Positions 1-37,413 of a DNA stretch of 37,413 nucleotides are shown one piece after another. Positions within the stretch are counted from its first letter, which is position 1; each line of letters begins with the position of its first letter. Made by a program: the position numbers and the translations under genes. Under the pieces are notes generated by a model. The model had not been told where the DNA came from and made no database searches. It saw nothing but the letters and a program-made list of their open reading frames with translations. Location of the stretch: IMG/VR virus record IMGVR_UViG_3300002460_000014, positions 1 to 37,413 of that record; one strand, given 5' to 3'. Source of the stretch: a virus.

Positions 1-76
1 CCTCCGCCGCGACCGACAAAGCCGGTGGCGAGCTGCGCCTCTCAAGCGGCATCTCGACTGGCACCGGCGGCTCGTT
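1..76. repeat. 76-bp terminal direct repeat, identical to 37338..37413 (circular-closure overlap or terminal redundancy)
   Basis: Read directly: the first 76 bases equal the last 76 bases of the window. Unit length is 37,337 bp. Confidence 0.95.
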
Positions 77-14332: not shown

Positions 14333-14733
14333 GTCCTAACGACATAAAAGTTATAAACGAGTTTCCGCCGTTCTTTCAAGATATTATCAAAGCAGGAATG
14401 AAACCCGAACCGACAACGATTTATCCGTTTTCTAATGTTATTTATAACCCAAGTGGTTTAGATATCCCTCAAGACATAATGATTCACGAAGCGGTTCATA
14501 TCAGACAACAAGGCGAGAACCCAGCCGATTGGTGGAAGCGATACCTAACTGATAACCAGTTCAGATTCAATCAAGAACTGGAAGCTAACCAAGAGCAATA
14601 TAAGTTTGTGTGTAAAGTCCTTAAAGACAAAAACCAAAGAGCGAGAGCATTGCTAAAGATAGCGAGAAATATGGCTGGAAAGGTTTATAACTTGAATGTT
14701 AGTGTTAATGAGATAATGAGGATGATAAAATGA
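14329..14733 (+). CDS. hypothetical protein with HExxH motif (MIHEAVHIRQ)
   Basis: 134-aa ORF, ATGA-coupled to terL. Confidence 0.6.
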   Translation: MSPNDIKVINEFPPFFQDIIKAGMKPEPTTIYPFSNVIYNPSGLDIPQDIMIHEAVHIRQQGENPADWWKRYLTDNQFRFNQELEANQEQYKFVCKVLKDKNQRARALLKIARNMAGKVYNLNVSVNEIMRMIK

Positions 14734-14798
14734 ACTATCCCGATGACTTCATAAATAAAGTAATACAGGGCGACTGTCTTGTTATTCGCCGAGAATGA
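14730..14798 (+). pseudogene. 22-codon relic of a beta-class DNA methyltransferase N-terminus
   Basis: MNYPDDFINKVIQGDCL then VIRRE-stop. It parallels MYKIEDILNKVHNADCL at the start of the intact methyltransferase at 15314. Confidence 0.6.
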
Positions 14799-14807
14799 TA
14801 CTATAAT
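14779..14807 (+). promoter_or_regulatory. sigma70-type promoter TTGTTA-N17-TATAAT serving the HNH gene
   Basis: Read directly. The -10 element ends 6 nt before ATG 14814. Confidence 0.5.
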
Positions 14808-14813
14808 AAATAT

Positions 14814-15326
14814 ATGCCAAAAGGTATATATTCAAACCCAAAAGAAAGAGCAGAGAAAATATCTAAAGCATTAAAAACAGGTAAGTTTTTTAACTGTTTA
14901 ATTTGTTGTAGTAAGTTTTGGAGAAAACAATATGCGATTAAAAAAGGGCAGAATAAGTTTTGTTCAAAAGATTGTTATTTCAAATGGCAAAAGGGAAGGA
15001 ATAAAAGTGAGGCGTTTAGAGTAAAATGTAAGGAAGCAAGATTAAGAAAAGCACACCTATATACGATTGATAAAAAAAATAGATTTTGGAGAAATAGCAA
15101 TGAATATAAAGAGTGGAGAAAAAGTGTGTTTAGGAGAGATAACTGGACTTGTAAAAAATGTGGTGCAAGAAGTAAGAAAAACTGTTATGTAAGAATTGAG
15201 GCACACCATATTAAGCCATTTGCCTTATTCCCAGAATTAAGGTTTGTCATAGATAACGGAGTAACACTTTGCAAACCGTGCCATGATAAAGAGCCGAAAG
15301 GTAAAGAAATCTTATGTATAAAATAG
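14814..15326 (+). CDS. HNH homing-type endonuclease
   Basis: NSNEYKEWRKSVFRRDNWTCKKCG...AHHIKPF...IDNGVTLCKPCH. Paralogous to the 22141 ORF. Confidence 0.85.
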   Translation: MPKGIYSNPKERAEKISKALKTGKFFNCLICCSKFWRKQYAIKKGQNKFCSKDCYFKWQKGRNKSEAFRVKCKEARLRKAHLYTIDKKNRFWRNSNEYKEWRKSVFRRDNWTCKKCGARSKKNCYVRIEAHHIKPFALFPELRFVIDNGVTLCKPCHDKEPKGKEILCIK

Positions 15327-16048
15327 AAGATATACTTAACAAAGTTCATAATGCAGATTGCCTTGAGTTTATGAAGCAAATGCCCGATAAATGTGTGGAT
15401 TTGGTTGTTACGAGTCCGCCCTATAATTTAGGAGATTCGCCCTTAGGCGATAGACGAAGGAAAACACTCGGGACGAAATTATATGAAGATTTTACCGACA
15501 AGTTATCTGACGAAGACTATCTAAACTGGACACTAAGTATTATTGGAGAATGTATCAGGATTTCAAGGTATACTTGTTGGAATATCCAACTTGTGAAGGG
15601 AACTCGTTCATTTTTTCCAAAGATTTTCCAAACATACAACGATAACTTGAAGGACGTATTTATATGGGTAAAACAAGCACAGGCAAGTATGCACGCAGAT
15701 AAGGGTATGATGGCAAAAGGATATGAATATGTGCTTATGTTTGGAGATGATAGTTCACAGATGTTCAAATATAATAACTTTCCCGAAAACGGCTATGTTC
15801 CCAATAGGCAGGAATGGTTCAACAAGGATAATGGATTCGGACATAACGCAACATTCCCGAAAGAATTACCGAGTTATTTTGTAAACTACTTTTCAAAGTC
15901 GAACGATATAATCCTTGACCCATTCCTCGGCTCTGGCACAACCGCAGTCGCCGCTAAAATGCTGGGCAGAAACTATATCGGAATTGAGATTAGTGAAAAG
16001 TATTGTAAAATCGCCAACGATAGATTAAGACAGGAGATTTTATTATGA
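15314..16048 (+). CDS. DNA methyltransferase, beta class (N6-adenine or N4-cytosine)
   Basis: Motif IV DLVVTSPPY comes before motif I ILDPFLGSGTTAVAA. Confidence 0.85.
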   Translation: MYKIEDILNKVHNADCLEFMKQMPDKCVDLVVTSPPYNLGDSPLGDRRRKTLGTKLYEDFTDKLSDEDYLNWTLSIIGECIRISRYTCWNIQLVKGTRSFFPKIFQTYNDNLKDVFIWVKQAQASMHADKGMMAKGYEYVLMFGDDSSQMFKYNNFPENGYVPNRQEWFNKDNGFGHNATFPKELPSYFVNYFSKSNDIILDPFLGSGTTAVAAKMLGRNYIGIEISEKYCKIANDRLRQEILL

Positions 16049-17838: not shown

Positions 17839-17863
17839 CAAATAATTTTATAGGGTGTATAAT
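17835..17863 (+). promoter_or_regulatory. perfect consensus sigma70 promoter TTGACA-N17-TATAAT
   Basis: ttgaca at 17835-17840, a 17-nt spacer, and tataat at 17858-17863. Confidence 0.7.
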
Positions 17864-17869
17864 GGCAAT

Positions 17870-18008
17870 ATGAAAAACTTAAATTATCTAAAAGTCTTAG
17901 ATTTAATCGCACCTCTATTTCTGGGTGTTCAGCCACGAGCTGTAACGGCGATCGATCTGAGCGCCCAAGATAAGCACCCAGAAACAGTGGTGTGATTTTT
18001 GTTTTTTC
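17870..18008 (+). other. short transcription unit: either a leaderless 41-codon ORF (17870-17995) or a ~135-nt structured RNA, ending in a terminator-like hairpin plus T-tract
   Basis: The ATG lies 6 nt after the -10 element. A 10-bp perfect stem 17918-17927/17975-17984 extends by 4 bp (17910-17913/17989-17992). T-tract at 17996-18007. Confidence 0.5.
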
Positions 18009-18029
18009 ATAATTTAATCTTAACAAGCG

Positions 18030-18320
18030 AACAATGGGTTGGTTGTAGGGAAGCGGGAGAAAATTCGGGTCTTTTTGCGGTTTCCGCCGCTGACATTAAA
18101 TACATTTTGTATTGAAAATGAAGCACGGGGATTAACAATCGCTTTTCTGCCCAAAGCAGGGATAGCCGACACATCTCACTTTATGTTTCGGTGCCTGTGG
18201 TTTAGCTTTTGTACTGAATAGTTACAACATTCAAGAATGTCTAAACACAACCGCCAGAGGAATTGCAACCTTGCTTAGCTATTAAGAAAAATAAATTAAG
18301 ACGCACTCTTACTTTTTTAA
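18030..18320 (+). ncRNA. GC-elevated, ORF-free, hairpin-rich segment (unclassified candidate ncRNA)
   Basis: About 50% GC by eye against roughly one-third for the genome. Hairpins at 18052-18091, 18096-18116, 18147-18159 and 18166-18191, plus a three-way junction at 18200-18246. Confidence 0.35.
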
Positions 18321-18382
18321 ATTCCTAACTACTGTTAATTCCACTTAAAAGGAATATAATAAAAGAGAGAAGGTTATTAAAG

Positions 18383-18771: not shown

Positions 18772-18810
18772 ACTTTTAATAAACTAAAAACAAAATCGGC
18801 AGAAATTTAA

Positions 18811-20646
18811 TTGGAACATAAGTCAATTTGTGAGCTTGTAAGACAAGCTGAAGAAAATCAAAAACACGGGGTAATACGTAAATCTCAATACGTTACTTTT
18901 GAGCCGCAAGCCGATCTTGATAAAATATCAGCTTATGTAGAATCAAAACATATATCCGGCTTAACCGACGACCTTGGAAGAGAAAAGCCATTTTTTAATA
19001 TAGGCATAGCCATTCGTAATCTCTGGTTCAGGGCAACCGAGATTATGAGAAAGAACTTTAGATTAAAAGCCACTAAATCAAGCCACTTCTTGTTGGCTTT
19101 TTTGGCGAATATACACCTAAGAGCGTGGATGCGTAAAAGCGACTTCGGTCAGTTCTTAAACGACTGGGGTTTGGCACTTGCCACTTATAACTCGGCTGTA
19201 TCAAAACACATAGAAAAAGACGGCGAGCTTATCTCAAAGGTTATTCCTTGGAGCAAGATTATCTGCGACTTCGTTGATTTTGAGAATAATCAGAAGATTG
19301 AAAAACTTTACTTTACTCCGGCCCAGTTAAGACAGAACGAAAACTATAACAAAGAACTGGTGGAAGAACTTATCAGAAGCAAGTCAACGAGGAAAACATT
19401 ATCCGGCCAGCAAGTGGACTCAAAAGCCGATTACATAGAAGTTTATGAGGTTCACGGCGAACTGCCTCTAAGCCACTTAACCGACAAAGAAAAAGACGAA
19501 AACGTTTATCAGCAACAGATGCACGTTGTGGCTTTTAATCAAGCGGAAACCGGCAAATACAGTGATTACACTTTATTTTCAGGCAGAGAGAAGCAGGATC
19601 CTTATATGCTTGCGAGTTTGATACCGGATACTGATGGGGGAATATCATTAAGTGGTTCAATAAAACTTACTTTTGAAAATCAGTGGATGGTAAACGACAC
19701 CGCTAAGAAAGTAAAAGATATGCTTGAGTTAGCTTCGCTTATTTTGCTTCAAACTTCAGACAATAACTTTCAAGGCAGGAACGCTTTAGTAAACTTACAG
19801 CAGGGCGATATATTGGTTCACGCTCAAAACCAGCCGCTAACACAGTTAAATAACAAGGCCGATATAAATGCCTTACAAAGTTTCGGTCAGCAGTGGGAAG
19901 TATTGGCTAAGGAGATTACTTCAACGCCGGAATCTTTAAGAGGCGAAACACTGCCAAGTGGAACGCCTTACTCTCTTGGAGCTTATCTTGGCGGTCAAGC
20001 CGGTTCTTTATTCGTTACTATGACCAAAAACAAAGGACTTGCCTTAGAGCGAATGGCAAGAAAGTTTATACTCCCCTACCTTAAAAAGAAAATGGATACC
20101 ACTGAAGAAATTGCCGAAACGCTTGAAAGCCACGAAATCAAACAGATTGACGCGGCATTCGTCCCGAATGAAGCCATAAGAATCGCCAATGAACAGATTA
20201 AAACTGATATTCTTAATGGCAAGCTGACTCAGCAACCTGATTTGGGTGCTATAGAATCGCAGATTCGGGCTAAGTTAGGCAGTTTGGGCAACCAGAGGTT
20301 CATAAGGCCGTCTGACATAATTTCTAAGAAGTGGAGGGATATTTTCAAAGATTTCATTTGGGAGATAGAAGTTGAAGTTACCAACGAAGAAACAGACAAG
20401 CAGGCAACGCTTCAGACGCTTTCAACGATTATGCAGACAGTGGCGGCGAATCCTTTGGTGCTTCAAGACCCGAATATGCGACTGATTTTTAACAGAGTGC
20501 TTGAACTTACTGGCGTAGTTTCGCCAGTTGAAATCAGTCAGACAGAAAGTCAACCTCAATTACAACAGGGACAGCCATTACAGCCAACAGCTCAAACTGG
20601 CGGCAGACAGGTCGAAATGGCTATGAATAATTTACAAACAAGATAA
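18811..20646 (+). CDS. portal protein (size and position based)
   Basis: 611 aa, the largest ORF at the head of the late operon, with a Q-rich C-terminus. The TTG start directly follows an in-frame TAA and there is no SD. Confidence 0.6.
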   Translation: MEHKSICELVRQAEENQKHGVIRKSQYVTFEPQADLDKISAYVESKHISGLTDDLGREKPFFNIGIAIRNLWFRATEIMRKNFRLKATKSSHFLLAFLANIHLRAWMRKSDFGQFLNDWGLALATYNSAVSKHIEKDGELISKVIPWSKIICDFVDFENNQKIEKLYFTPAQLRQNENYNKELVEELIRSKSTRKTLSGQQVDSKADYIEVYEVHGELPLSHLTDKEKDENVYQQQMHVVAFNQAETGKYSDYTLFSGREKQDPYMLASLIPDTDGGISLSGSIKLTFENQWMVNDTAKKVKDMLELASLILLQTSDNNFQGRNALVNLQQGDILVHAQNQPLTQLNNKADINALQSFGQQWEVLAKEITSTPESLRGETLPSGTPYSLGAYLGGQAGSLFVTMTKNKGLALERMARKFILPYLKKKMDTTEEIAETLESHEIKQIDAAFVPNEAIRIANEQIKTDILNGKLTQQPDLGAIESQIRAKLGSLGNQRFIRPSDIISKKWRDIFKDFIWEIEVEVTNEETDKQATLQTLSTIMQTVAANPLVLQDPNMRLIFNRVLELTGVVSPVEISQTESQPQLQQGQPLQPTAQTGGRQVEMAMNNLQTR

Positions 20647-20738: not shown

Positions 20739-21335
20739 ATGTCAAACGAAGCAATAAGACAAAATCAATTCCTTCAGAACTATCCGATGAAGTATGAGAA
20801 ATCGGAAGTGGAGTTATTAAATGCCACGTTCTCGGACGAGTTCGGCAATAACTTAAAATTAGTCAGGAAGTTTTTATTACAGGGTGAATTAAGCCAAGCG
20901 GAACAGGAAAACTTGAATGCGATAATGAGCGAGAATGTTATCGCTCTCTTTAAGAAGGTGTTTATTCCGGAGATTGATCCGGATATTCCGATACAGTTTC
21001 ACTTAAACGATCCGTGGGTGTCGGTAGAAATCACCGATAGAAACGTAGACCACGTATTTATTGAGCTTGAAACAGTCCAGTTAGCGATAGATTATCTCTC
21101 TCAAAGGTTCAAGTGCCTCATAAACAAGAGCGAAGACGACAGGGATATTAAGTTCAGTGATTTGAAGTTCCACAAAGACAAAGAACCTCACAAAGCGATA
21201 GTTGATTTAGCGGCGAGAAATATGCTGATAGCGAGATTCAATCTTCAGTTTAACCTGTTGAAAGGACTTGCGGGGGATAAAATCGAAACGCAAAAAGAAA
21301 GAGAGGCTCGTCTCTTTAAAAATTCTACAAAATAA
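20739..21335 (+). CDS. hypothetical virion-module protein
   Basis: 198-aa ORF. Confidence 0.65.
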   Translation: MSNEAIRQNQFLQNYPMKYEKSEVELLNATFSDEFGNNLKLVRKFLLQGELSQAEQENLNAIMSENVIALFKKVFIPEIDPDIPIQFHLNDPWVSVEITDRNVDHVFIELETVQLAIDYLSQRFKCLINKSEDDRDIKFSDLKFHKDKEPHKAIVDLAARNMLIARFNLQFNLLKGLAGDKIETQKEREARLFKNSTK

Positions 21336-21340
21336 ATAAT

Positions 21341-21369
21341 TTGTTTTATTTTAAAAAGTGTGCTATAAT
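21341..21369 (+). promoter_or_regulatory. promoter TTGTTT-N17-TATAAT with extended -10 (TGC)
   Basis: ttgttt at 21341-21346, tgc at 21361-21363, tataat at 21364-21369. Confidence 0.55.
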
Positions 21370-21443
21370 TAGATTACTAAATAAAAAACTTGTGGAACTT
21401 GTCCACTCAAAAACAAGTGTTGCGCTACCAAGCGCTCAAAAAT

Positions 21444-22019
21444 ATGGAAAACCAATTCGAGAACCTCGACTCTCAAAATGAGGAAAACGAGAACGCCAAC
21501 TCTTCAAACGGCGAATCAGAGGAGGTAGATGTTGATGCGTTGAAAGAAGAAAACGTTAAACTCAAAAAAACAAACCAAGGACTTTATGAGGAATCTCAAA
21601 AAGCTAAGGGTTTTGTAAGAGGTTCTGATGGCAAATGGGTAAAACCCGCGCCAAAAGAAACTAAAGAGGAATCAACTGAAACTAAATCTGAAACAATGTC
21701 TCTTAAAGACATAAGAGCTTTACAGGACGTTCACGACGAAGATGTGGACGAGCTGATTGAATACGCCAAGTTCAAAGGCGTGTCAGTCGCTGAAGTTAAA
21801 AAGAATCCTGTTATACAAGCTCACTTAAGGACGAAGGAGGAAGAACGCAAAACTGCCGCCGCTACTAACACTGGCGCGGGAGGTAGAGCAACTTCCAAGA
21901 TTACGGGCGACACATTGCTTGAAAGAGCGATAAATGAAAATGTCGTTCCTGAAACTCAAGAGGGAATGGACGCGCTCGTAAAGTCAATGATTGAGAGAAA
22001 AATCAGTAAAAAATCTTAA
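21444..22019 (+). CDS. scaffolding-like protein (acidic, coiled-coil)
   Basis: Acidic N-terminus and K/E-rich helices. Lies between the portal and capsid genes. I prefer ATG 21444 over the TTG 21390 used in the ORF track. Confidence 0.45.
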   Translation: MENQFENLDSQNEENENANSSNGESEEVDVDALKEENVKLKKTNQGLYEESQKAKGFVRGSDGKWVKPAPKETKEESTETKSETMSLKDIRALQDVHDEDVDELIEYAKFKGVSVAEVKKNPVIQAHLRTKEEERKTAAATNTGAGGRATSKITGDTLLERAINENVVPETQEGMDALVKSMIERKISKKS

Positions 22020-22034
22020 TATAGCGGCAGATTT

Positions 22035-22090
22035 ATTAAGTTAAGTTTAGCGGCAGATAGGCTAAACGGCAGGATTACTTAACTTAATAA
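22035..22090 (+). other. 14-bp perfect-stem hairpin after the scaffold gene
   Basis: ttattaagttaagt (22035-22048) pairs with acttaacttaataa (22077-22090). The loop contains agcggcaga-type repeats. Confidence 0.5.
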
Positions 22091-22140
22091 CAGTTCTTTC
22101 AAACCTTTTAATATCAGTCAATTTGTGGTAAGATTGTCTT

Positions 22141-22764
22141 ATGAATGGACGATTTACAAAGGGACAAATCCCTTGGAACAAAGACAAAAAACGCCCAGAG
22201 ATGAGCGGTGAGAAACATCCTATGTTTGGCAAGAATCAAACCGAAGAATCCAAGCAGAAGGTTCGGGATACTCTAAAAAAGAAATATCCCAACGGCAGGA
22301 AAGTTTGGAATAAAGATATTCCTTGTTCTGAATCTACTAAAAAGAAAATAAGCGACAGCAAGAAGGGCAAGCCAAGTAATTCACCGACAAAGTTTAAGAA
22401 GGGGCATATTCCATTACACAAAGGAAAATCTGCTTATTGGGCGATTGGTGAAAAGAATAATAATTGGAAAGGCGGAATAACCAAGACAAACTATAATCCG
22501 AATCTCATAGCAAAAAACTCTATTGAATATAGATTGTGGCGTGAAGCCGTATTTTCAAGAGATAATTGGATTTGTCAGAAGTGTAAAGTTCAAGGAGGAT
22601 ATTTACATCCTCATCATATCAGGAACTTTGCAGAAGTTATTTTACTAAGATTCGCCATTGATAATGGGATTACATTTTGCCGAAAATGTCATAGAAAATT
22701 TCACCACAGATTCGGAGTTAAAAATAATAATCAAGAACAGATAAATAAATTTATCGCAAGTTGA
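22141..22764 (+). CDS. HNH homing-type endonuclease with NUMOD-like N-terminal repeats
   Basis: GEKHPMFGKNQTEESKQK, PWNKD, then NSIEYRLWREAVFSRDNWICQKC...PHHIRNF...IDNGITFCRKCH. Confidence 0.85.
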   Translation: MNGRFTKGQIPWNKDKKRPEMSGEKHPMFGKNQTEESKQKVRDTLKKKYPNGRKVWNKDIPCSESTKKKISDSKKGKPSNSPTKFKKGHIPLHKGKSAYWAIGEKNNNWKGGITKTNYNPNLIAKNSIEYRLWREAVFSRDNWICQKCKVQGGYLHPHHIRNFAEVILLRFAIDNGITFCRKCHRKFHHRFGVKNNNQEQINKFIAS

Positions 22765-22939
22765 CTGGTATTAAAAAGGGGGAAGAAAGAACAGCAAACA
22801 TACGAATACAATCGGAACTTCAACGCTTTCGGGAGTCAATAGGATTAAACTGTTTAGTTCAACTTTTCAGGAAATCCTAAAGAAATCCCTTATAGCGGAA
22901 GCAATCTGTCAGGTTGACCGTAGTGATTCCAAATATATT

Positions 22940-23674
22940 GTGAATCCTTATGGCGGTGAACCGACAGCGGTAGTTCAGGCAGTCGTAGGTACTTACTCCG
23001 TTAGCGCCTTCTCAACGACTGATGACAACTTGACCGTAACAGATGAGGTAGTTTACGGAGAACACGTTTTTGGATTTGAAAAAGTATTTTCAAGATTTGA
23101 TTTAGCGGCCGCGAGATTTGAGCAAATGGCCTACGCGGTGAGATACGCTTTAGACAAATGGGTTGTTAATACCCTTTTGGAAGAAGGCACCGGCGCTTAC
23201 ACAACGCCAGTGGGTGGATTTACTACAGCCGGCAACTTAAACACCATAATCGCCAATCTTTGGACGAAGTGGGCGGGTTTTGATATTACCGCTGGCGCTT
23301 ACTGTGTTATTGAAAGCGGCGACTTAACGGGTGTCTTGGTAGCTATGATGGATCAAGGGTTCTCAATGGCCGACGCGGCTTTGAAGAACGGATTTATCAA
23401 GCACTATGGAGGCATTGACTGGTATGTAGTTAGGGCAGGCACTTTCGTAGACGAAGCGGCAACAACTGTTTCGGGTTCTAAAACTTGGACTAACTTAAAC
23501 CGCAGATTAGCTGGAATAAAGATGACAACTACTTACGCTTCTCCTCGCGATTTGACCTATGAAGAAAAAGGCGTATCCGGTAAAACAGGTATGGAAATTG
23601 ACGTTTGGGCGCTTGTAGGTTTGAGAGTGTGGAACAACAAGGCAGCACTTACCGTTGATATTGCATTAGCATAG
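22940..23674 (+). CDS. major capsid protein (start unresolved; the frame is open back to 22775)
   Basis: Follows the scaffold-like gene. The ORF-track GTG start has no SD, and 55 further sense codons lie upstream without any ATG, GTG or TTG. Confidence 0.6.
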   Translation: MNPYGGEPTAVVQAVVGTYSVSAFSTTDDNLTVTDEVVYGEHVFGFEKVFSRFDLAAARFEQMAYAVRYALDKWVVNTLLEEGTGAYTTPVGGFTTAGNLNTIIANLWTKWAGFDITAGAYCVIESGDLTGVLVAMMDQGFSMADAALKNGFIKHYGGIDWYVVRAGTFVDEAATTVSGSKTWTNLNRRLAGIKMTTTYASPRDLTYEEKGVSGKTGMEIDVWALVGLRVWNNKAALTVDIALA

Positions 23675-23807
23675 TTTCAGCACTTTACTAACCCCTTTTT
23701 GGGGGGTTCCAGCGTGAAATGAGTAAGGGGTTAATCTGCCGATTCTCTCCAAAAAGTTTCACCTTGGACTCCCTCAAAAAGGACTAACTAAAAAATAAAC
23801 AAATAAA

Positions 23808-36253: not shown

Positions 36254-37413
36254 ATGAATCCAGCTATAAAATATATATCAATTTTAATCGTAATCGGTTT
36301 AATGCTTGGTTTTAGTGTTTCTATCGCCAATGCTTCAATCTTTGACTGGTTTAATTCTTTATTTAATTCTTCTGAAGAATTGACTTTAGGAGCACCGTCT
36401 TTAGGAACTTTCCACAAAGATTTATTTCCACTTTCAAATAATACTTATGTTTTAGGAACTTCAACTCGCCAATGGCTTCGTGTTACTTCACAAAATGCTT
36501 CTACCACTAACTTTACCGCCACTAACGCTTGGATTACTAATCAAACAATAGATGCCTTAACCATATCTTCTTTAGCTGTATCGCCTTTTGTGGTTGGCGG
36601 AACTGCCACTACTACAATTTATGGCAATGGTTCTGTTTCAACATTTGGAGGCGGGGCTACTTTTAATGGAGTATTAACTGCTACCAGCTCTGTTTATTTG
36701 GCGACAGTTGGAGGCAATGTGGGTATTGCTTCATCATCGCCACTGTCAGTTTTAAGTATCAATGTTTCAAATAACAATGGGGTGAATCAAGCTCTTAATA
36801 TTACTAATGCCACTGGATCGCTAATGTTCGTAAGAAGCGATGGGAATATTGGCTTTAGATCAACCAATCCCTTATCTGTATTGGATATACAGGCCCCAGC
36901 TGGAGAAGAAGCCCTAATCCTGCGTGCTCCCGGTTCGGGTACTCAAGATGCGATGCAGGTCATCAACAATGCTGCTGCGACATTGCATCAGCTACGTATG
37001 GATGGATTATATGTTAATACTGGTGGGTTTAAGGCAACTGGACAGGCAAGTTTTGCAGGTTCTGGAACAGGATTAGAATTTTCTTATGACGGTGTAAGTG
37101 GACATTTTCGAGTGCATGACCGTGTTTTAAGCGATTGGCTGCCTTTTCAAATCAACGACGCTATTCATGTTTCAGGAGATAATGGAGGAAGTGTCAAGGT
37201 AGGCATCGGCACGGCAGGTACAGCCCCTACGCAAATGCTCACGATGGAAGGCAACGCGGCAAGAACGTTTCTGGTCGAACGCCACACGTCAGCCGATACC
37301 GCAGGCAACAATCTGACCGTCCAATCAGGCGGGGCCACCTCCGCCGCGACCGACAAAGCCGGTGGCGAGCTGCGCCTCTCAAGCGGCATCTCGACTGGCA
37401 CCGGCGGCTCGTT
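36254..37413 (+). CDS. tail fibre protein, N-terminal and central part (runs off the window and continues at 77..356)
   Basis: Checked by hand: open frame from ATG 36254 to the window end. Signal-like N-terminus MNPAIKYISILIVIGLMLGFSVSIANAS. Not in the ORF track because no stop occurs before the window end. Confidence 0.8.
   Translation, partial: MNPAIKYISILIVIGLMLGFSVSIANASIFDWFNSLFNSSEELTLGAPSLGTFHKDLFPLSNNTYVLGTSTRQWLRVTSQNASTTNFTATNAWITNQTIDALTISSLAVSPFVVGGTATTTIYGNGSVSTFGGGATFNGVLTATSSVYLATVGGNVGIASSSPLSVLSINVSNNNGVNQALNITNATGSLMFVRSDGNIGFRSTNPLSVLDIQAPAGEEALILRAPGSGTQDAMQVINNAAATLHQLRMDGLYVNTGGFKATGQASFAGSGTGLEFSYDGVSGHFRVHDRVLSDWLPFQINDAIHVSGDNGGSVKVGIGTAGTAPTQMLTMEGNAARTFLVERHTSADTAGNNLTVQSGGATSAATDKAGGELRLSSGISTGTGGS
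37338..37413. repeat. 76-bp terminal direct repeat, identical to 1..76
   Basis: Read directly. Confidence 0.95.

Follow-up and report, generated by a model that had tools for sequence, protein, structure and literature searches.

In the 37,413-nt stretch of viral DNA analysed here (the window), the major capsid gene carries an ACG triplet at the position of its homologues' initiator methionine, just downstream of an inserted HNH endonuclease cassette. The capsid gene is intact beside this cassette, and we propose that near-cognate initiation at the ACG, the most likely start of the gene, probably yields a 290-amino-acid protein. In our survey of aligned loci, weak start codons at exactly this position appear in relatives only together with the cassette or a hairpin remnant of it. 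An earlier note on this DNA had argued that the capsid protein must be expressed in an unusual way, a view that our comparisons support, with initiation at ACG as the presumed route.

The capsid gene and its start position

Rechecking the sequence and the open-reading-frame list confirmed an open capsid frame between 22775 and 23674, after a TAA at 22772–22774, with GTG 22940 as its earliest ATG, GTG or TTG. The gene-caller choice of this GTG gives the 244-aa product P0001, which lacks 46 conserved N-terminal residues; the exact 244-aa product is absent from other records. A set of 936 capsid homologues, ~287–291 aa long, shares the N-terminus MNTIGTSTLSG, and their methionine aligns exactly with ACG 22802–22804 (alignment A1), directly followed by the conserved N-terminal residues. 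The reported lack of a canonical capsid start codon was thus borne out: ACG is aligned to Met, having arisen from the relatives' ATG by a T-to-C difference, and no canonical in-frame start lies between TAA 22772 and 22940. The 55 codons upstream of GTG 22940 had been taken as coding throughout. This holds for 46 of them (22802–22939), and the first nine (KGGRKNSKH) have no equivalent in homologues, so that homologue alignment gives 290 aa and not the ~299 aa estimated before.

Codon comparison places capsid codons 2–46 under purifying selection: relative to the closest relative (L098) they show 17 synonymous and 6 amino-acid differences, and residues 2–46 are conserved to the same degree as the remainder of the protein. 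By alignment, the capsid gene is intact, with its coding sequence running from 22802. Judged on the window alone, ATC 22811, three codons downstream of the ACG, would be an equally plausible near-cognate codon. Shine–Dalgarno sequences are absent from the genes of this phage, and the ACG has none at a workable spacing. A tRNA scan found no phage tRNA and hence no altered initiator tRNA.

The protein matches PHROG 267 (major head protein, E = 1.1e-6), with weak profile matches only to T7-like capsid chains in the PDB (E = 0.007–0.28), and the gene order, in which the portal and scaffold genes come first, fits a capsid gene; the assignment of a T7-like HK97 fold is tentative. The closest relatives share 74–76% amino-acid identity over the full capsid protein. 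Searches by tblastn and blastn against 50,697 GenBank phage records returned no match, and thus no annotated relative, and a metagenome scan for a second assembly of this phage found no exact copy, only relatives at 75–77%. The source of the closest relatives is 0.1-µm groundwater filtrates, and relatives are mostly binned with Saccharibacteria and other CPR genomes. The ends of the contig overlap by 76 nt; that is, it closes on itself.

An HNH cassette at the leader–start junction

The gene upstream of the capsid gene is assigned a putative scaffolding role from its location between the portal and capsid genes. Its N-terminus (MENQFEN...) resembles that of the corresponding gene in relatives, which begins MEN/MED..., and its product has no match in Pfam or PHROG. 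The native leader that follows contains CGGCAG motifs, also found in the leaders of L098–L100 and, as a further copy, 9 nt upstream of the portal start at 18795; the motif is a candidate promoter or regulator site. The native leader hairpin has perfect 14-nt arms (22033–22046 and 22077–22090) and ends 1–5 nt upstream of the capsid ATG in cassette-free relatives.

Three relatives (L098–L100) are collinear with the window up to TTAACTTAATAA (22090) and again from A[C]G AAT ACA ATC GGA (22802), and in L098–L101 the same leader runs straight into ATG AAT ACA. The cassette is therefore polymorphic at a single junction, present in the window and missing from the collinear L098–L101, and the insertion point is the leader/start junction, 1–5 nt 5' of an otherwise intact capsid start position. 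The earlier note had placed the HNH cassette where the capsid 5' end should be and had considered a missing 5' exon; neither view survives, given that cassette-free relatives pass from the same leader directly into ATG AAT ACA. The comparison with HNH-less relatives that it recommended turned up a canonical ATG in those relatives, together with the same leader and no extra exon.

The HNH open reading frame matches Pfam NUMOD3 (E = 2.9e-6) and HNH (E = 1.1e-4), both above curated cut-offs, and PHROG HNH families (best E = 3.9e-16). Its reported relationship to the HNH gene at 14814 is borne out by 46% identity over the nuclease core. We interpret the insert as a free-standing HNH homing-endonuclease cassette, with cleavage and homing putative. 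Among 99 related loci, 13 carry an HNH gene at the capsid-start site, of three nuclease types. Two pairs of loci with 97–98% capsid identity (L010 versus L044, L022 versus L025) differ in leader, start codon and codons 4–6 and are then identical, a co-conversion pattern seen in these pairs and not demonstrable for the window itself. A locus search based on the HNH gene found that HNH relatives elsewhere do not adjoin this capsid family.

Several other descriptions of the insert were discarded. An IS- or MITE-like multicopy element was rejected, the inverted arms being present but unique: neither arm has a second copy at ≥75% identity in the 37.4-kb genome. A target-site duplication was likewise rejected, since the upstream AAC AC copy is the base of the 3' arm and is also conserved in ATG-bearing cassettes. 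A two-base insertion within ATG (AAACAT/AC/GAAT versus AAACATGAAT in L098) was dropped because it was not reproduced in other loci.

A predicted stem and a putative internal promoter

The 10-nt inverted repeat described previously is real and belongs to a larger pair, in which 22106–22131 pairs with 22751–22776 (26 nt, 85% complementary) and 22093–22100 with 22785–22792 (8/8). Inverted arms of the cassettes measure 40–50 nt and co-evolve; in the window the 3' arm overlaps the final codons and the stop codon of the HNH frame. A mini-construct with a linker in place of the HNH interior folds at −66 kcal/mol (z = −7.8), and pairing of the 5' flank with the 3' flank in RNAduplex has an energy of −47.6 kcal/mol (z = −7.9). 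Cognate arms formed the most stable combination in all 8 of 8 loci (mean −41.5 versus −19.6 kcal/mol for non-cognate arms). Eight of 10 HNH-bearing loci gave stem energies of −32 to −53 kcal/mol (z = −5 to −8.5), and in six of those eight the 3' arm stops 5–11 nt short of the start. The other HNH gene of the genome, at 14814, has no such inverted arms (z = −0.2).

The extended −10-like element had been correctly reported, with its 6-nt gap to the HNH ATG. In most cassettes the HNH ATG follows a TGnTAnnAT sequence (TACAAT in L009) at a distance of 6 nt; the gap is 8 nt in L055 and 15 nt in L001. An extended −10 type element also precedes the HNH gene at 14814. The element is a putative promoter, and its spacing predicts a leaderless HNH mRNA. 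The description of the HNH gene as a self-promoted mobile cassette between inverted repeats holds up to this extent, promoter activity being presumed. At the equivalent place in the 5' arm, a GTTC[CT]T-type motif occurs in the nine non-canonical loci of the first survey (as a near variant in L005), and the five non-canonical loci found later show, by eye, this motif or a related extended leader. The predicted stem, the promoter-like element inside the 5' arm and the co-variation of the arms together give the hairpin-plus-internal-promoter arrangement of the I-TevI type. This architecture is read from sequence and folding, and the function assigned to it is putative.

Together these features suggest how the capsid might be expressed. 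The cassette has inserted 1–5 nt before the capsid start, whose codon is now ACG. In mRNA that reads through from the native leader, pairing of the arms would loop out the HNH frame, with the predicted stem covering and so burying the HNH AUG; the base of the paired stem would come to lie 9 nt 5' of the ACG, adjoining the native leader hairpin. HNH transcripts from the internal extended −10 element would be leaderless and so would not include the 5' arm. Initiation by fMet-tRNA on the near-cognate ACG would then produce a 290-aa capsid protein with the normal N-terminus of its family.

Table 1. Features of the capsid-start region; positions refer to the window.
Feature	Position	Strand	Basis and remarks
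Putative scaffolding-protein gene	21444..22019	+	ATG 21444, TAA 22017-22019; ORF list
Three CGGCAG motif copies, native capsid-gene leader	22022-22032, 22048-22058, 22065-22074	+	Repeat families D2, D3
Native leader hairpin	22033..22090	+	Inverted repeat I2, fold, alignment A3 (L098, L099, L100, L001)
Inserted, putatively mobile cassette, missing from closest relatives	22091..22801	+	Alignments A3, A4; ~710 bp
5' arm of predicted cassette stem	22093..22140	+	GTTCTTTC 22093-22100; 22106-22131; reaches HNH ATG
Extended −10-like element TGgTAAGAT	22126..22134	+	Sequence; 6 nt upstream of HNH ATG, inside 5' arm
Putative HNH homing-endonuclease gene	22141..22764	+	207 aa, NUMOD3 + HNH domains
3' arm of predicted cassette stem	22740..22792	+	22751-22776; GAAAGAAC 22785-22792
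Major capsid protein gene	22802..23674	+	290 codons + stop codon; PHROG match, homologues, codon 2-46 conservation
ACG, proposed near-cognate start codon	22802..22804	+	Alignments A1, A4; survey of start-aligned codons
GTG, first canonical in-frame start	22940..22942	+	ORF list

Weak start codons across related loci

Across 99 distinct loci the start-aligned codon is ATG in 69, GTG or TTG in 16, and ACG, ATT, ATA or ATC in 14; AAG, AGG, CTG or two-step codons occur in none. Every one of the 14 loci in the last group (the window and 13 others) has either the cassette or a hairpin remnant of it that lacks the HNH gene. The scaffold and capsid genes are separated by an HNH gene in 7 of these 14 loci versus 6 of the 85 others (p = 2.6e-4), and the seven HNH-less non-canonical loci have hairpin-bearing leaders of 73–98 nt against a median of ~46 nt (p = 2e-5). 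Each locus enters these counts as an independent case; fewer than 14 independent events lie behind the non-canonical codons, because cassettes can spread horizontally together with the start codon.

On the capsid tree the non-canonical loci are scattered and sit beside relatives with ATG that reach 98% amino-acid identity. In 13 of the 14, no canonical in-frame start precedes the conserved N-terminus, the exception being a TTG nine codons upstream in L107. Six loci (L153, L062, L090, L174, L170 and L050) have an in-frame stop 1–5 codons 5' of the non-ATG codon, which makes initiation further upstream in frame impossible. The ACG, ATA and ATC alleles were each recovered from 2–3 separately assembled contigs, some from different samples.

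Four cassette-bearing loci (L001, L015, L025 and L167) keep ATG, and the cassette therefore does not require the weak codon. L167 has the same nuclease type as ACG and ATT loci, which weakens a simple nuclease-immunity explanation. It also breaks a strict rule linking nuclease type to start codon (types A and B non-ATG, type C ATG), being type B with ATG. A compensating Shine–Dalgarno sequence was rejected too: AGGA or GGAG occurs 5–12 nt upstream only in L005, L107 and L159 (3 of 14), and lies further away in a few other non-canonical loci.

Competing explanations

The recurrence of weak codons bears on two ways of dispensing with the ACG altogether. The triplet could be a sequencing or assembly error, or mark a defective genome, the functional phage having ATG. 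It differs from ATG by one transition, in a metagenome contig of which no second assembly was found, and all closest relatives have ATG. Against this stand 13 related loci where that codon likewise reads ACG, ATT, ATA or ATC and the cassette or its remnant is invariably present, and the recovery of three such alleles from separate assemblies; the remainder of the capsid gene is intact in a contig that closes on itself, and the prior of one random error striking this base is ~1 in 37,000. We regard an error as very unlikely. A start further downstream, at ATC 22811, ATT 22844, CTG 22850 or GTG 22940, would cost the capsid 3 to 46 N-terminal residues and seems to us only a little less improbable. 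GTG 22940 is the sole canonical start, GGGAG lies 8 nt 5' of ATT 22844, and ATC 22811 equals ACG in near-cognate quality. Non-canonical initiation was indeed the right class of option in the earlier note, but its example, ATT 22844, was the wrong codon, the Met-aligned triplet being ACG 22802. The N-terminal conservation described above, dominated by synonymous changes, speaks against any downstream start, and an unused position 1 should drift, whereas 30 of 30 non-ATG loci stay within GTG, TTG, ATT, ATC, ATA and ACG. Moreover, no near-cognate codon closely follows position 1 in loci of the NTQSTYG type.

Termination–reinitiation would keep the ACG and change how ribosomes reach it: they would stop at the HNH TGA (22762–22764) and restart 37 nt downstream, where restarting ribosomes may be less choosy, and capsid synthesis would then depend on HNH translation. 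The distance from HNH stop to capsid start is short (24–73 nt) in all HNH-bearing non-ATG loci, and leaderless transcripts from the cassette promoter, without the 5' arm, would leave the 3' arm and the capsid start open. Seven non-canonical loci nevertheless have no HNH frame, most of them also no upstream mini-ORF (L090, L010, L107 and L170); in late read-through mRNA the predicted stem would hide the HNH AUG; and coupling the most abundant protein to a nuclease normally held at a low level is implausible. We consider reinitiation unlikely. Least probable of all, to the point of being hardly credible, is that splicing of a group I or II intron, or recoding, supplies a canonical start. The long stem does loop out the HNH frame as introns loop out their ORFs, and L062 has an out-of-frame ATG AAC ACT 17 nt before a matching AAT ACT that would fit an ACT-to-ACT hop. 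However, Rfam gave nothing across the window at its gathering threshold, nothing of note at E ≤ 10 in the interval 21300–23300, where the suggested covariance-model check thus found no group I or II match, and no match in the seven HNH-less remnant loci; no intron, ribozyme or leader family is therefore present. An intron core would by no means fit into the short non-ORF flanks (49 + 35 = 84 nt in L009), and ATT, ATA and ATC loci lack the terminal G expected at a group I 3' splice site. The reported absence of ATG from 22020–22140 was confirmed, which leaves no exon or take-off ORF in the window, and no splice can make AUG because this stretch is without AT(G). Among recoding events, a shift from the TTG 22761 frame has no counterpart as an N-terminal extension in homologues, and the A5G5 run (22773–22782), proposed as a site of an indel or of slippage, is irrelevant, lying upstream of the true N-terminus inside the 3' arm. 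Programmed bypass of the gene 60 type is disfavoured by the missing ATG and by the restriction of the matching ACT...ACT pair to L062. RNA editing to AUG was rejected, as C-to-U could restore ACG only, not ATT, ATA or ATC.

Discussion

Initiation at ACG thus remains our preferred account of capsid expression. ACG in E. coli supports less than about 1% of AUG initiation. Such a low efficiency seems inadequate for the most abundant virion protein and counts against the ACG reading.

Why the codon is weak may have any of three causes, which we rank about equally. Expression may have been tuned after the insertion brought a promoter and a stabilising stem; start-region changes may travel with the endonuclease, or protect against it (co-conversion or target immunity); or a mildly deleterious change may have hitch-hiked with a driving element. 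Selection, rather than damage, may have shaped an arrangement to which the weak start codon belongs, in a structural or a defensive version; we put this joint claim forward only tentatively and think it doubtful. In the structural version, the leader hairpin and cassette stem, stacked 5–14 nt upstream, would permit efficient ACG, AUU, AUA or AUC initiation in a Shine–Dalgarno-poor host, possibly of the Patescibacteria/CPR. In the defensive version, a changed start codon would resist HNH enzymes targeting the conserved leader/ATG AAY AC site, and start-codon degeneracy would be an arms-race trait of a virion gene. Either would newly connect a selfish nuclease with the choice of start codon in a gene that is both essential and highly expressed.

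For annotation, gene callers shorten such capsid genes (to 244 aa in the window, 262–273 aa in others), and the main structural gene of a widespread uncultured podovirus-like phage group is consequently mis-called. If ACG initiation is confirmed, a protein needed in hundreds of copies per virion would be made from ACG, AUU, AUA or AUC without Shine–Dalgarno sequences, challenging the view of such codons as reserved for low-level regulatory proteins and offering a natural system in which to test how little-known hosts select start codons. The loci also document an HNH cassette whose insertion site is the junction between leader and start codon, which a co-evolving long-range stem is predicted to insulate, and which decays into hairpin remnants and appears to bring altered start regions into new genomes. 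The influence of selfish nucleases on the signals that control expression of essential phage genes is now directly testable.

Comparison with known systems

A literature search found no description of a weak capsid start combined with an HNH cassette. The set of non-AUG codons observed at the capsid start (GUG, UUG, AUU, AUC, AUA and ACG) is limited to codons that support initiation by initiator tRNA. E. coli infC and pcnB have AUU start codons. To our knowledge, the known bacterial near-cognate starts belong to low-abundance regulatory proteins, the weak codon serving autoregulation. As in these, the proposed capsid start is a single-base neighbour of AUG from this same set, at an authentic start. 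Unlike infC and pcnB, it would serve the most abundant virion protein, in a genome without Shine–Dalgarno sequences and beside a mobile element. Degenerate initiation triplets have been studied (for example, PMC5499595).

As in ORF-containing group I introns, an endonuclease frame is predicted to be looped out by RNA pairing in an essential gene region; unlike them, the window has no ribozyme core, Rfam match or exon junction, and the insertion lies upstream of the coding sequence. The closer parallel is with the free-standing homing endonucleases of T-even phages (mob, seg) and the control of I-TevI, segB and mobE by an RNA hairpin and an internal promoter; T4 provides the precedent both for co-conversion and for hairpin-plus-internal-promoter endonuclease genes (PMC2988022). 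Like mob and seg, the HNH frame sits between essential genes, shows presence/absence polymorphism and is associated, in related loci, with a short co-conversion tract into the flanking gene. Like I-TevI, segB and mobE, it would have its start hidden in a read-through RNA structure, with transcripts from its own promoter escaping the inhibitory arm. Differences from the T-even systems are that the stem is long-range (~600 nt) and encloses the whole HNH frame, that the HNH mRNA is predicted to be leaderless, and that the insertion falls exactly at the capsid leader/start-codon junction. Non-AUG codons have been described as damping the endonuclease ORF itself (PMC3073962); here, the weak non-AUG codon belongs to the host gene and not to the endonuclease.

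T4 mobA is an HNH gene inserted in the topoisomerase gene, which it splits (PMC2988022). As with mobA and gene 60, the window combines a mobile HNH element with an unusual translation event that the neighbouring essential gene would need, and the 5' part of the host gene adjoining the endonuclease gene is the part affected. Bonocora and colleagues reportedly described in 2011 a 50-nt coding gap in gene 60, tied to mobA and overcome by ribosomal bypass. The window differs in having no coding gap, take-off/landing codon pair or upstream ORF, and the event proposed for its capsid gene is near-cognate initiation rather than bypass.

Predicted start of the capsid protein

The earlier note's description of the capsid frame was confirmed on the sequence, both in its extent and in its earliest ATG, GTG or TTG, as was the lack of any ATG in 22020-22140. 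Its translation has a match in PHROG 267 (major head protein), with weak profile matches to T7-like capsid chains. In a large protein collection, we found 936 homologues, typically 287-291 aa long, which span 93-97% of the open frame (299 codons) and start MNTIGTSTLSGVNR. Their Met aligns exactly with ACG 22802-22804 (context 'cat ACG aat aca atc gga'), and the nine codons preceding it have no counterpart among them (alignment A1). Between the window and the related locus L098, codons 2-46 (22805-22939) show 17 synonymous changes and 6 that alter the amino acid, a better ratio than the 91 against 60 in the remainder of the gene, so these codons are coding. The longer capsid proposed earlier therefore holds for the upstream coding sequence but not for its length: the predicted product is 290 aa, neither 299 nor 244.

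The closest relatives, capsid loci L098-L101 from Hainich groundwater 0.1-µm samples, share 74-76% amino-acid identity with the window over the whole capsid (75-77% in the best tblastn segment). The window leader is common to them as far as TTAACTTAATAA (window 22090), including its hairpin of 14 bp and the CGGCAG motif in three copies, after which they have 1-5 nt and then ATG AAY ACN directly. Compared with these loci, the window thus has 22091-22801 inserted and, at 22803, C in place of T. The capsid gene is complete but for the T of its ATG, and no exon is missing.

Coordinates of features in the window
Feature	Position	Remarks
Capsid frame	22775-23674	Opens after TAA 22772-22774; earliest in-frame ATG/GTG/TTG is GTG 22940
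HNH gene of the cassette	22141-22764	Pfam NUMOD3 and HNH, both above curated cut-offs
Extended -10, TGgTAAGAT	22126-22134	Ends 6 nt short of the HNH ATG
Inverted pair	22106-22131 with 22751-22776	26 nt, 85% complementary
Outer part of pair	22093-22100 with 22785-22792	GTTCTTTC with GAAAGAAC
G+C-rich hairpin	23690-23708	AACCCCTTTTTGGGGGGTT; 16 nt past capsid stop; terminator-like, no following T run
CGGCAG(A/G)	22022-22074; 18795; 14102 and other sites; 23735	Three copies in capsid leader; one 9 nt 5' of portal start; further copies; reverse strand
N6/N4 DNA methylase gene	14730-16048	HNH gene within its 5' end
Second HNH gene	14814-15326	TATAAT 6 nt ahead of ATG; no long inverted arms
Displaced methylase start	14730-14798	Encodes MNYPDDFINKVIQGDCL..., then terminates; overlaps preceding gene's stop as ATGA
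Methylase restart ATG	15314	Diverged duplicate of same residues (MYKIEDILNKVHNADCLEF...); overlaps 3' end of second HNH gene
Portal gene	18811-20646	Apparent start TTG 18811, first codon past in-frame TAA
ORF-poor region	17846-18380	Slightly higher G+C; opens with TTGACA-17-TGTATAAT, 6 nt later ATG 17870 (41-codon ORF)

The cassette and its stem

The HNH gene, its promoter-like element and the 10-nt inverted repeat were all verified, as was paralogy to the HNH gene at 14814 (nuclease cores 46% identical); the repeat is the centre of a larger inverted pair. We paired the 5' flank (GTTCYT to the HNH ATG) with the 3' flank (from the final HNH codons on towards the start of the capsid gene). Of 10 loci with an HNH gene, 8 gave energies between -32 and -53 kcal/mol (z between -5 and -8.5), and in 6 of these 8 the 3' arm ends 5-11 nt ahead of the capsid start. 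The 5' arms are 57-82% identical between loci and find their best partner in their own 3' arm (mean -41.5 versus -19.6 kcal/mol), so compensatory change maintains the stem. Folded with a linker for the HNH interior, the window gives the leader hairpin and, 2 nt on, a ~37-bp stem (-66 kcal/mol, z = -7.8), with the capsid ACG 9 nt past its predicted end.

An extended -10 (TGnTAnnAT) lies within the 5' arm. In most cassettes its distance to the HNH ATG is 6 nt, an element and spacing also seen at the second HNH gene (14814); L055 has 8 nt and L001 15 nt. Transcripts from this predicted promoter would begin at the HNH AUG, leaderless and devoid of the 5' arm, and read-through transcripts from the native leader would form the stem and bury that AUG. 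We rejected a multicopy MITE-like element, as neither arm recurs elsewhere in the genome and the HNH gene at 14814 lacks arms.

The cassette ORFs are mosaic among the HNH ORFs 5' of the capsid gene in L022, L025, L015 and L167: those of L022 and L025 have the same N-terminal zinc-finger region (MIKQCQQCSKDFKTYPALIKLGKGK...) and unlike C-terminal nuclease modules (WIRLCVKCHKKYD versus HIKPISKGGSDYIQNIQPLC..CN). The WIRLC..CHKKYD-type cassette ORF has no Pfam HNH match.

Recurrent weak start codons

We gathered capsid loci from IMG/VR, metagenomes, contigs encoding truncated gene calls and GTDB genomes. AAG, AGG, CTG and codons two steps from ATG were found at the start-aligned position in none of the 99 distinct loci.

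Codons aligned with the family Met
Codon	Distinct loci	Members
ATG	69/99	
GTG or TTG	16/99	
ACG	5/99	Window, L005, L022, L153, L062
ATT	4/99	L069, L159, L010, L174
ATA	3/99	L052, L050, L170
ATC	2/99	L090, L107

Six loci (L153, L062, L090, L174, L170 and L050) have an in-frame stop only 1-5 codons 5' of this codon, which confines initiation to a few codons. For the ACG of L022, ATA of L050 and ATC of L090 there are two or three contigs each, assembled separately and in part from different samples, so random sequencing error is no general explanation. Non-canonical loci are dispersed over the capsid tree, often beside ATG relatives (capsid identity 98% for L022-L025, 97% for L010-L015 and 96% for L010-L044).

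Weak codons accompany the cassette or its apparent remnants. Of the 14 non-canonical loci, 7 have an HNH-type ORF between scaffold and capsid genes; among the remaining 85 loci, 6 do (Fisher p = 2.6e-4). The seven non-canonical loci that lack an HNH gene carry longer leaders: 73-98 nt, where the ATG loci have a median of ~46 nt (p = 2e-5). In most of these seven the extra sequence opens with GTTCYT, as the cassette 5' end does (L174 has GTTGCA); in several it forms a hairpin, and the base of this hairpin (GUUCUU / AAGAAU and similar) corresponds to that of the cassette stem. L062 still has the promoter of the cassette and a stub (TATAATaatATGAACACTGAAAATTT abutting ACG AAT ACT), and looks like an HNH deletion derivative. 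In the near-identical capsid genes of L010/L044 and L022/L025, the leader, start codon and codons 4-6 differ and all that follows is identical, the pattern that a short co-conversion tract leaves. ATG is retained in four cassette-bearing loci (L001, L015, L025 and L167), so the cassette does not force a weak codon. An apparent link between nuclease type and start codon was broken by L167.

How the capsid protein may be made

The capsid protein is probably initiated at a near-cognate codon, at 22802 or beside it, most likely by initiator tRNA on the ACG itself, because the start-aligned codon is limited to ATG and its neighbours GTG, TTG, ATT, ATC, ATA and ACG, in-frame stops bracket the start tightly and the N-terminus is conserved. 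An unused codon should drift freely, and any codon would do if a structure drove initiation without initiator tRNA. Non-canonical initiation, one of the note's proposals, was thus right in class, with the start now placed where the homologues' Met aligns. Its other proposals fared less well. For RNA splicing, Rfam searches found no intron or ribozyme, the flanks in L009 total 84 nt, far too short for an intron, and 22020-22140, lacking an ATG, offers no upstream exon or take-off ORF. The A5G5 run, suspected of an indel, sits inside the stem and upstream of the true N-terminus, and the TTG 22761 frame, proposed for a frameshift, has no counterpart in the homologues. Reinitiation following HNH translation fares worse than a near-cognate start, as it leaves the HNH-less non-canonical loci unexplained; a start at ATC 22811 is conceivable for the window alone. 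The main difficulty for the near-cognate start is efficiency: ACG is a very poor start codon in E. coli. Genes of this phage have A/T-rich leaders without Shine-Dalgarno sequences.

We rank three explanations for the company of weak codons and cassette about equally. The codon may tune dosage, since the insertion brings a promoter and a stabilising stem 5' of the capsid gene and the capsid:scaffold ratio matters. It may be linked to the nuclease, the altered start region being imported by co-conversion or shielding the conserved leader/ATG AAY AC target from cleavage. Or a mildly harmful start mutation may hitch-hike with a driving element.

Host and genome features

Relatives were binned mostly in CPR/Patescibacteria MAGs: Saccharibacteria (7 of 20 genome-collection matches, L166-L185), plus Peribacteria, Parcubacteria and Paceibacterota. 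L174, with an ATT start and extended leader, lies in a 356,648-bp contig (JBAZRG010000001.1) of a Candidatus Paceibacterota MAG, possibly within a prophage. Binning of phage contigs is weak evidence, and it hints that the group infects CPR bacteria.

Window 1-76 is identical to 37338-37413 and the contig closes on itself, so it is probably a complete genome of ~37.3 kb, either circular as assembled or terminally repeated. CGGCAG(A/G) may mark a late promoter or bind a regulator; most related capsid loci conserve (A/T)NCGGC(A/G)G(G) just 5' of their leader hairpin. No ORF in the window genome is long enough for a T7-type RNA polymerase. The portal's first ATG lies 78 codons downstream of its TTG, past an AYVESKH motif found near the N-terminus of related portals. 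The ORF at 17870 looks like another predicted leaderless transcript; ~18000-18380, with no convincing ORF and no Rfam match, may encode an RNA.

Comparison with known systems

The family-wide pattern makes this more than a one-off oddity, and non-canonical capsid starts cause systematic mis-annotation. Our literature search returned no description of a major capsid gene with an insertion where leader and start codon meet, of a co-evolving long-range stem insulating such an insertion, or of recurrent ACG/AUU/AUA/AUC starts of the most abundant virion protein with a cassette. Each of the components has a precedent: free-standing HNH cassettes, control by a hairpin plus a promoter, co-conversion, and near-cognate initiation. 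T4 mobA / gene 60 would be analogous in spirit to the nuclease-linkage explanation. In I-TevI, segB and mobE of T4, a hairpin and an internal promoter control endonuclease genes (PMC2988022), the same logic that we infer for the window HNH gene, whose predicted stem, by contrast, encloses a whole ORF of ~600 nt. Where a non-AUG codon damps the endonuclease ORF in known systems (PMC3073962), that of the window lies instead on the host gene.
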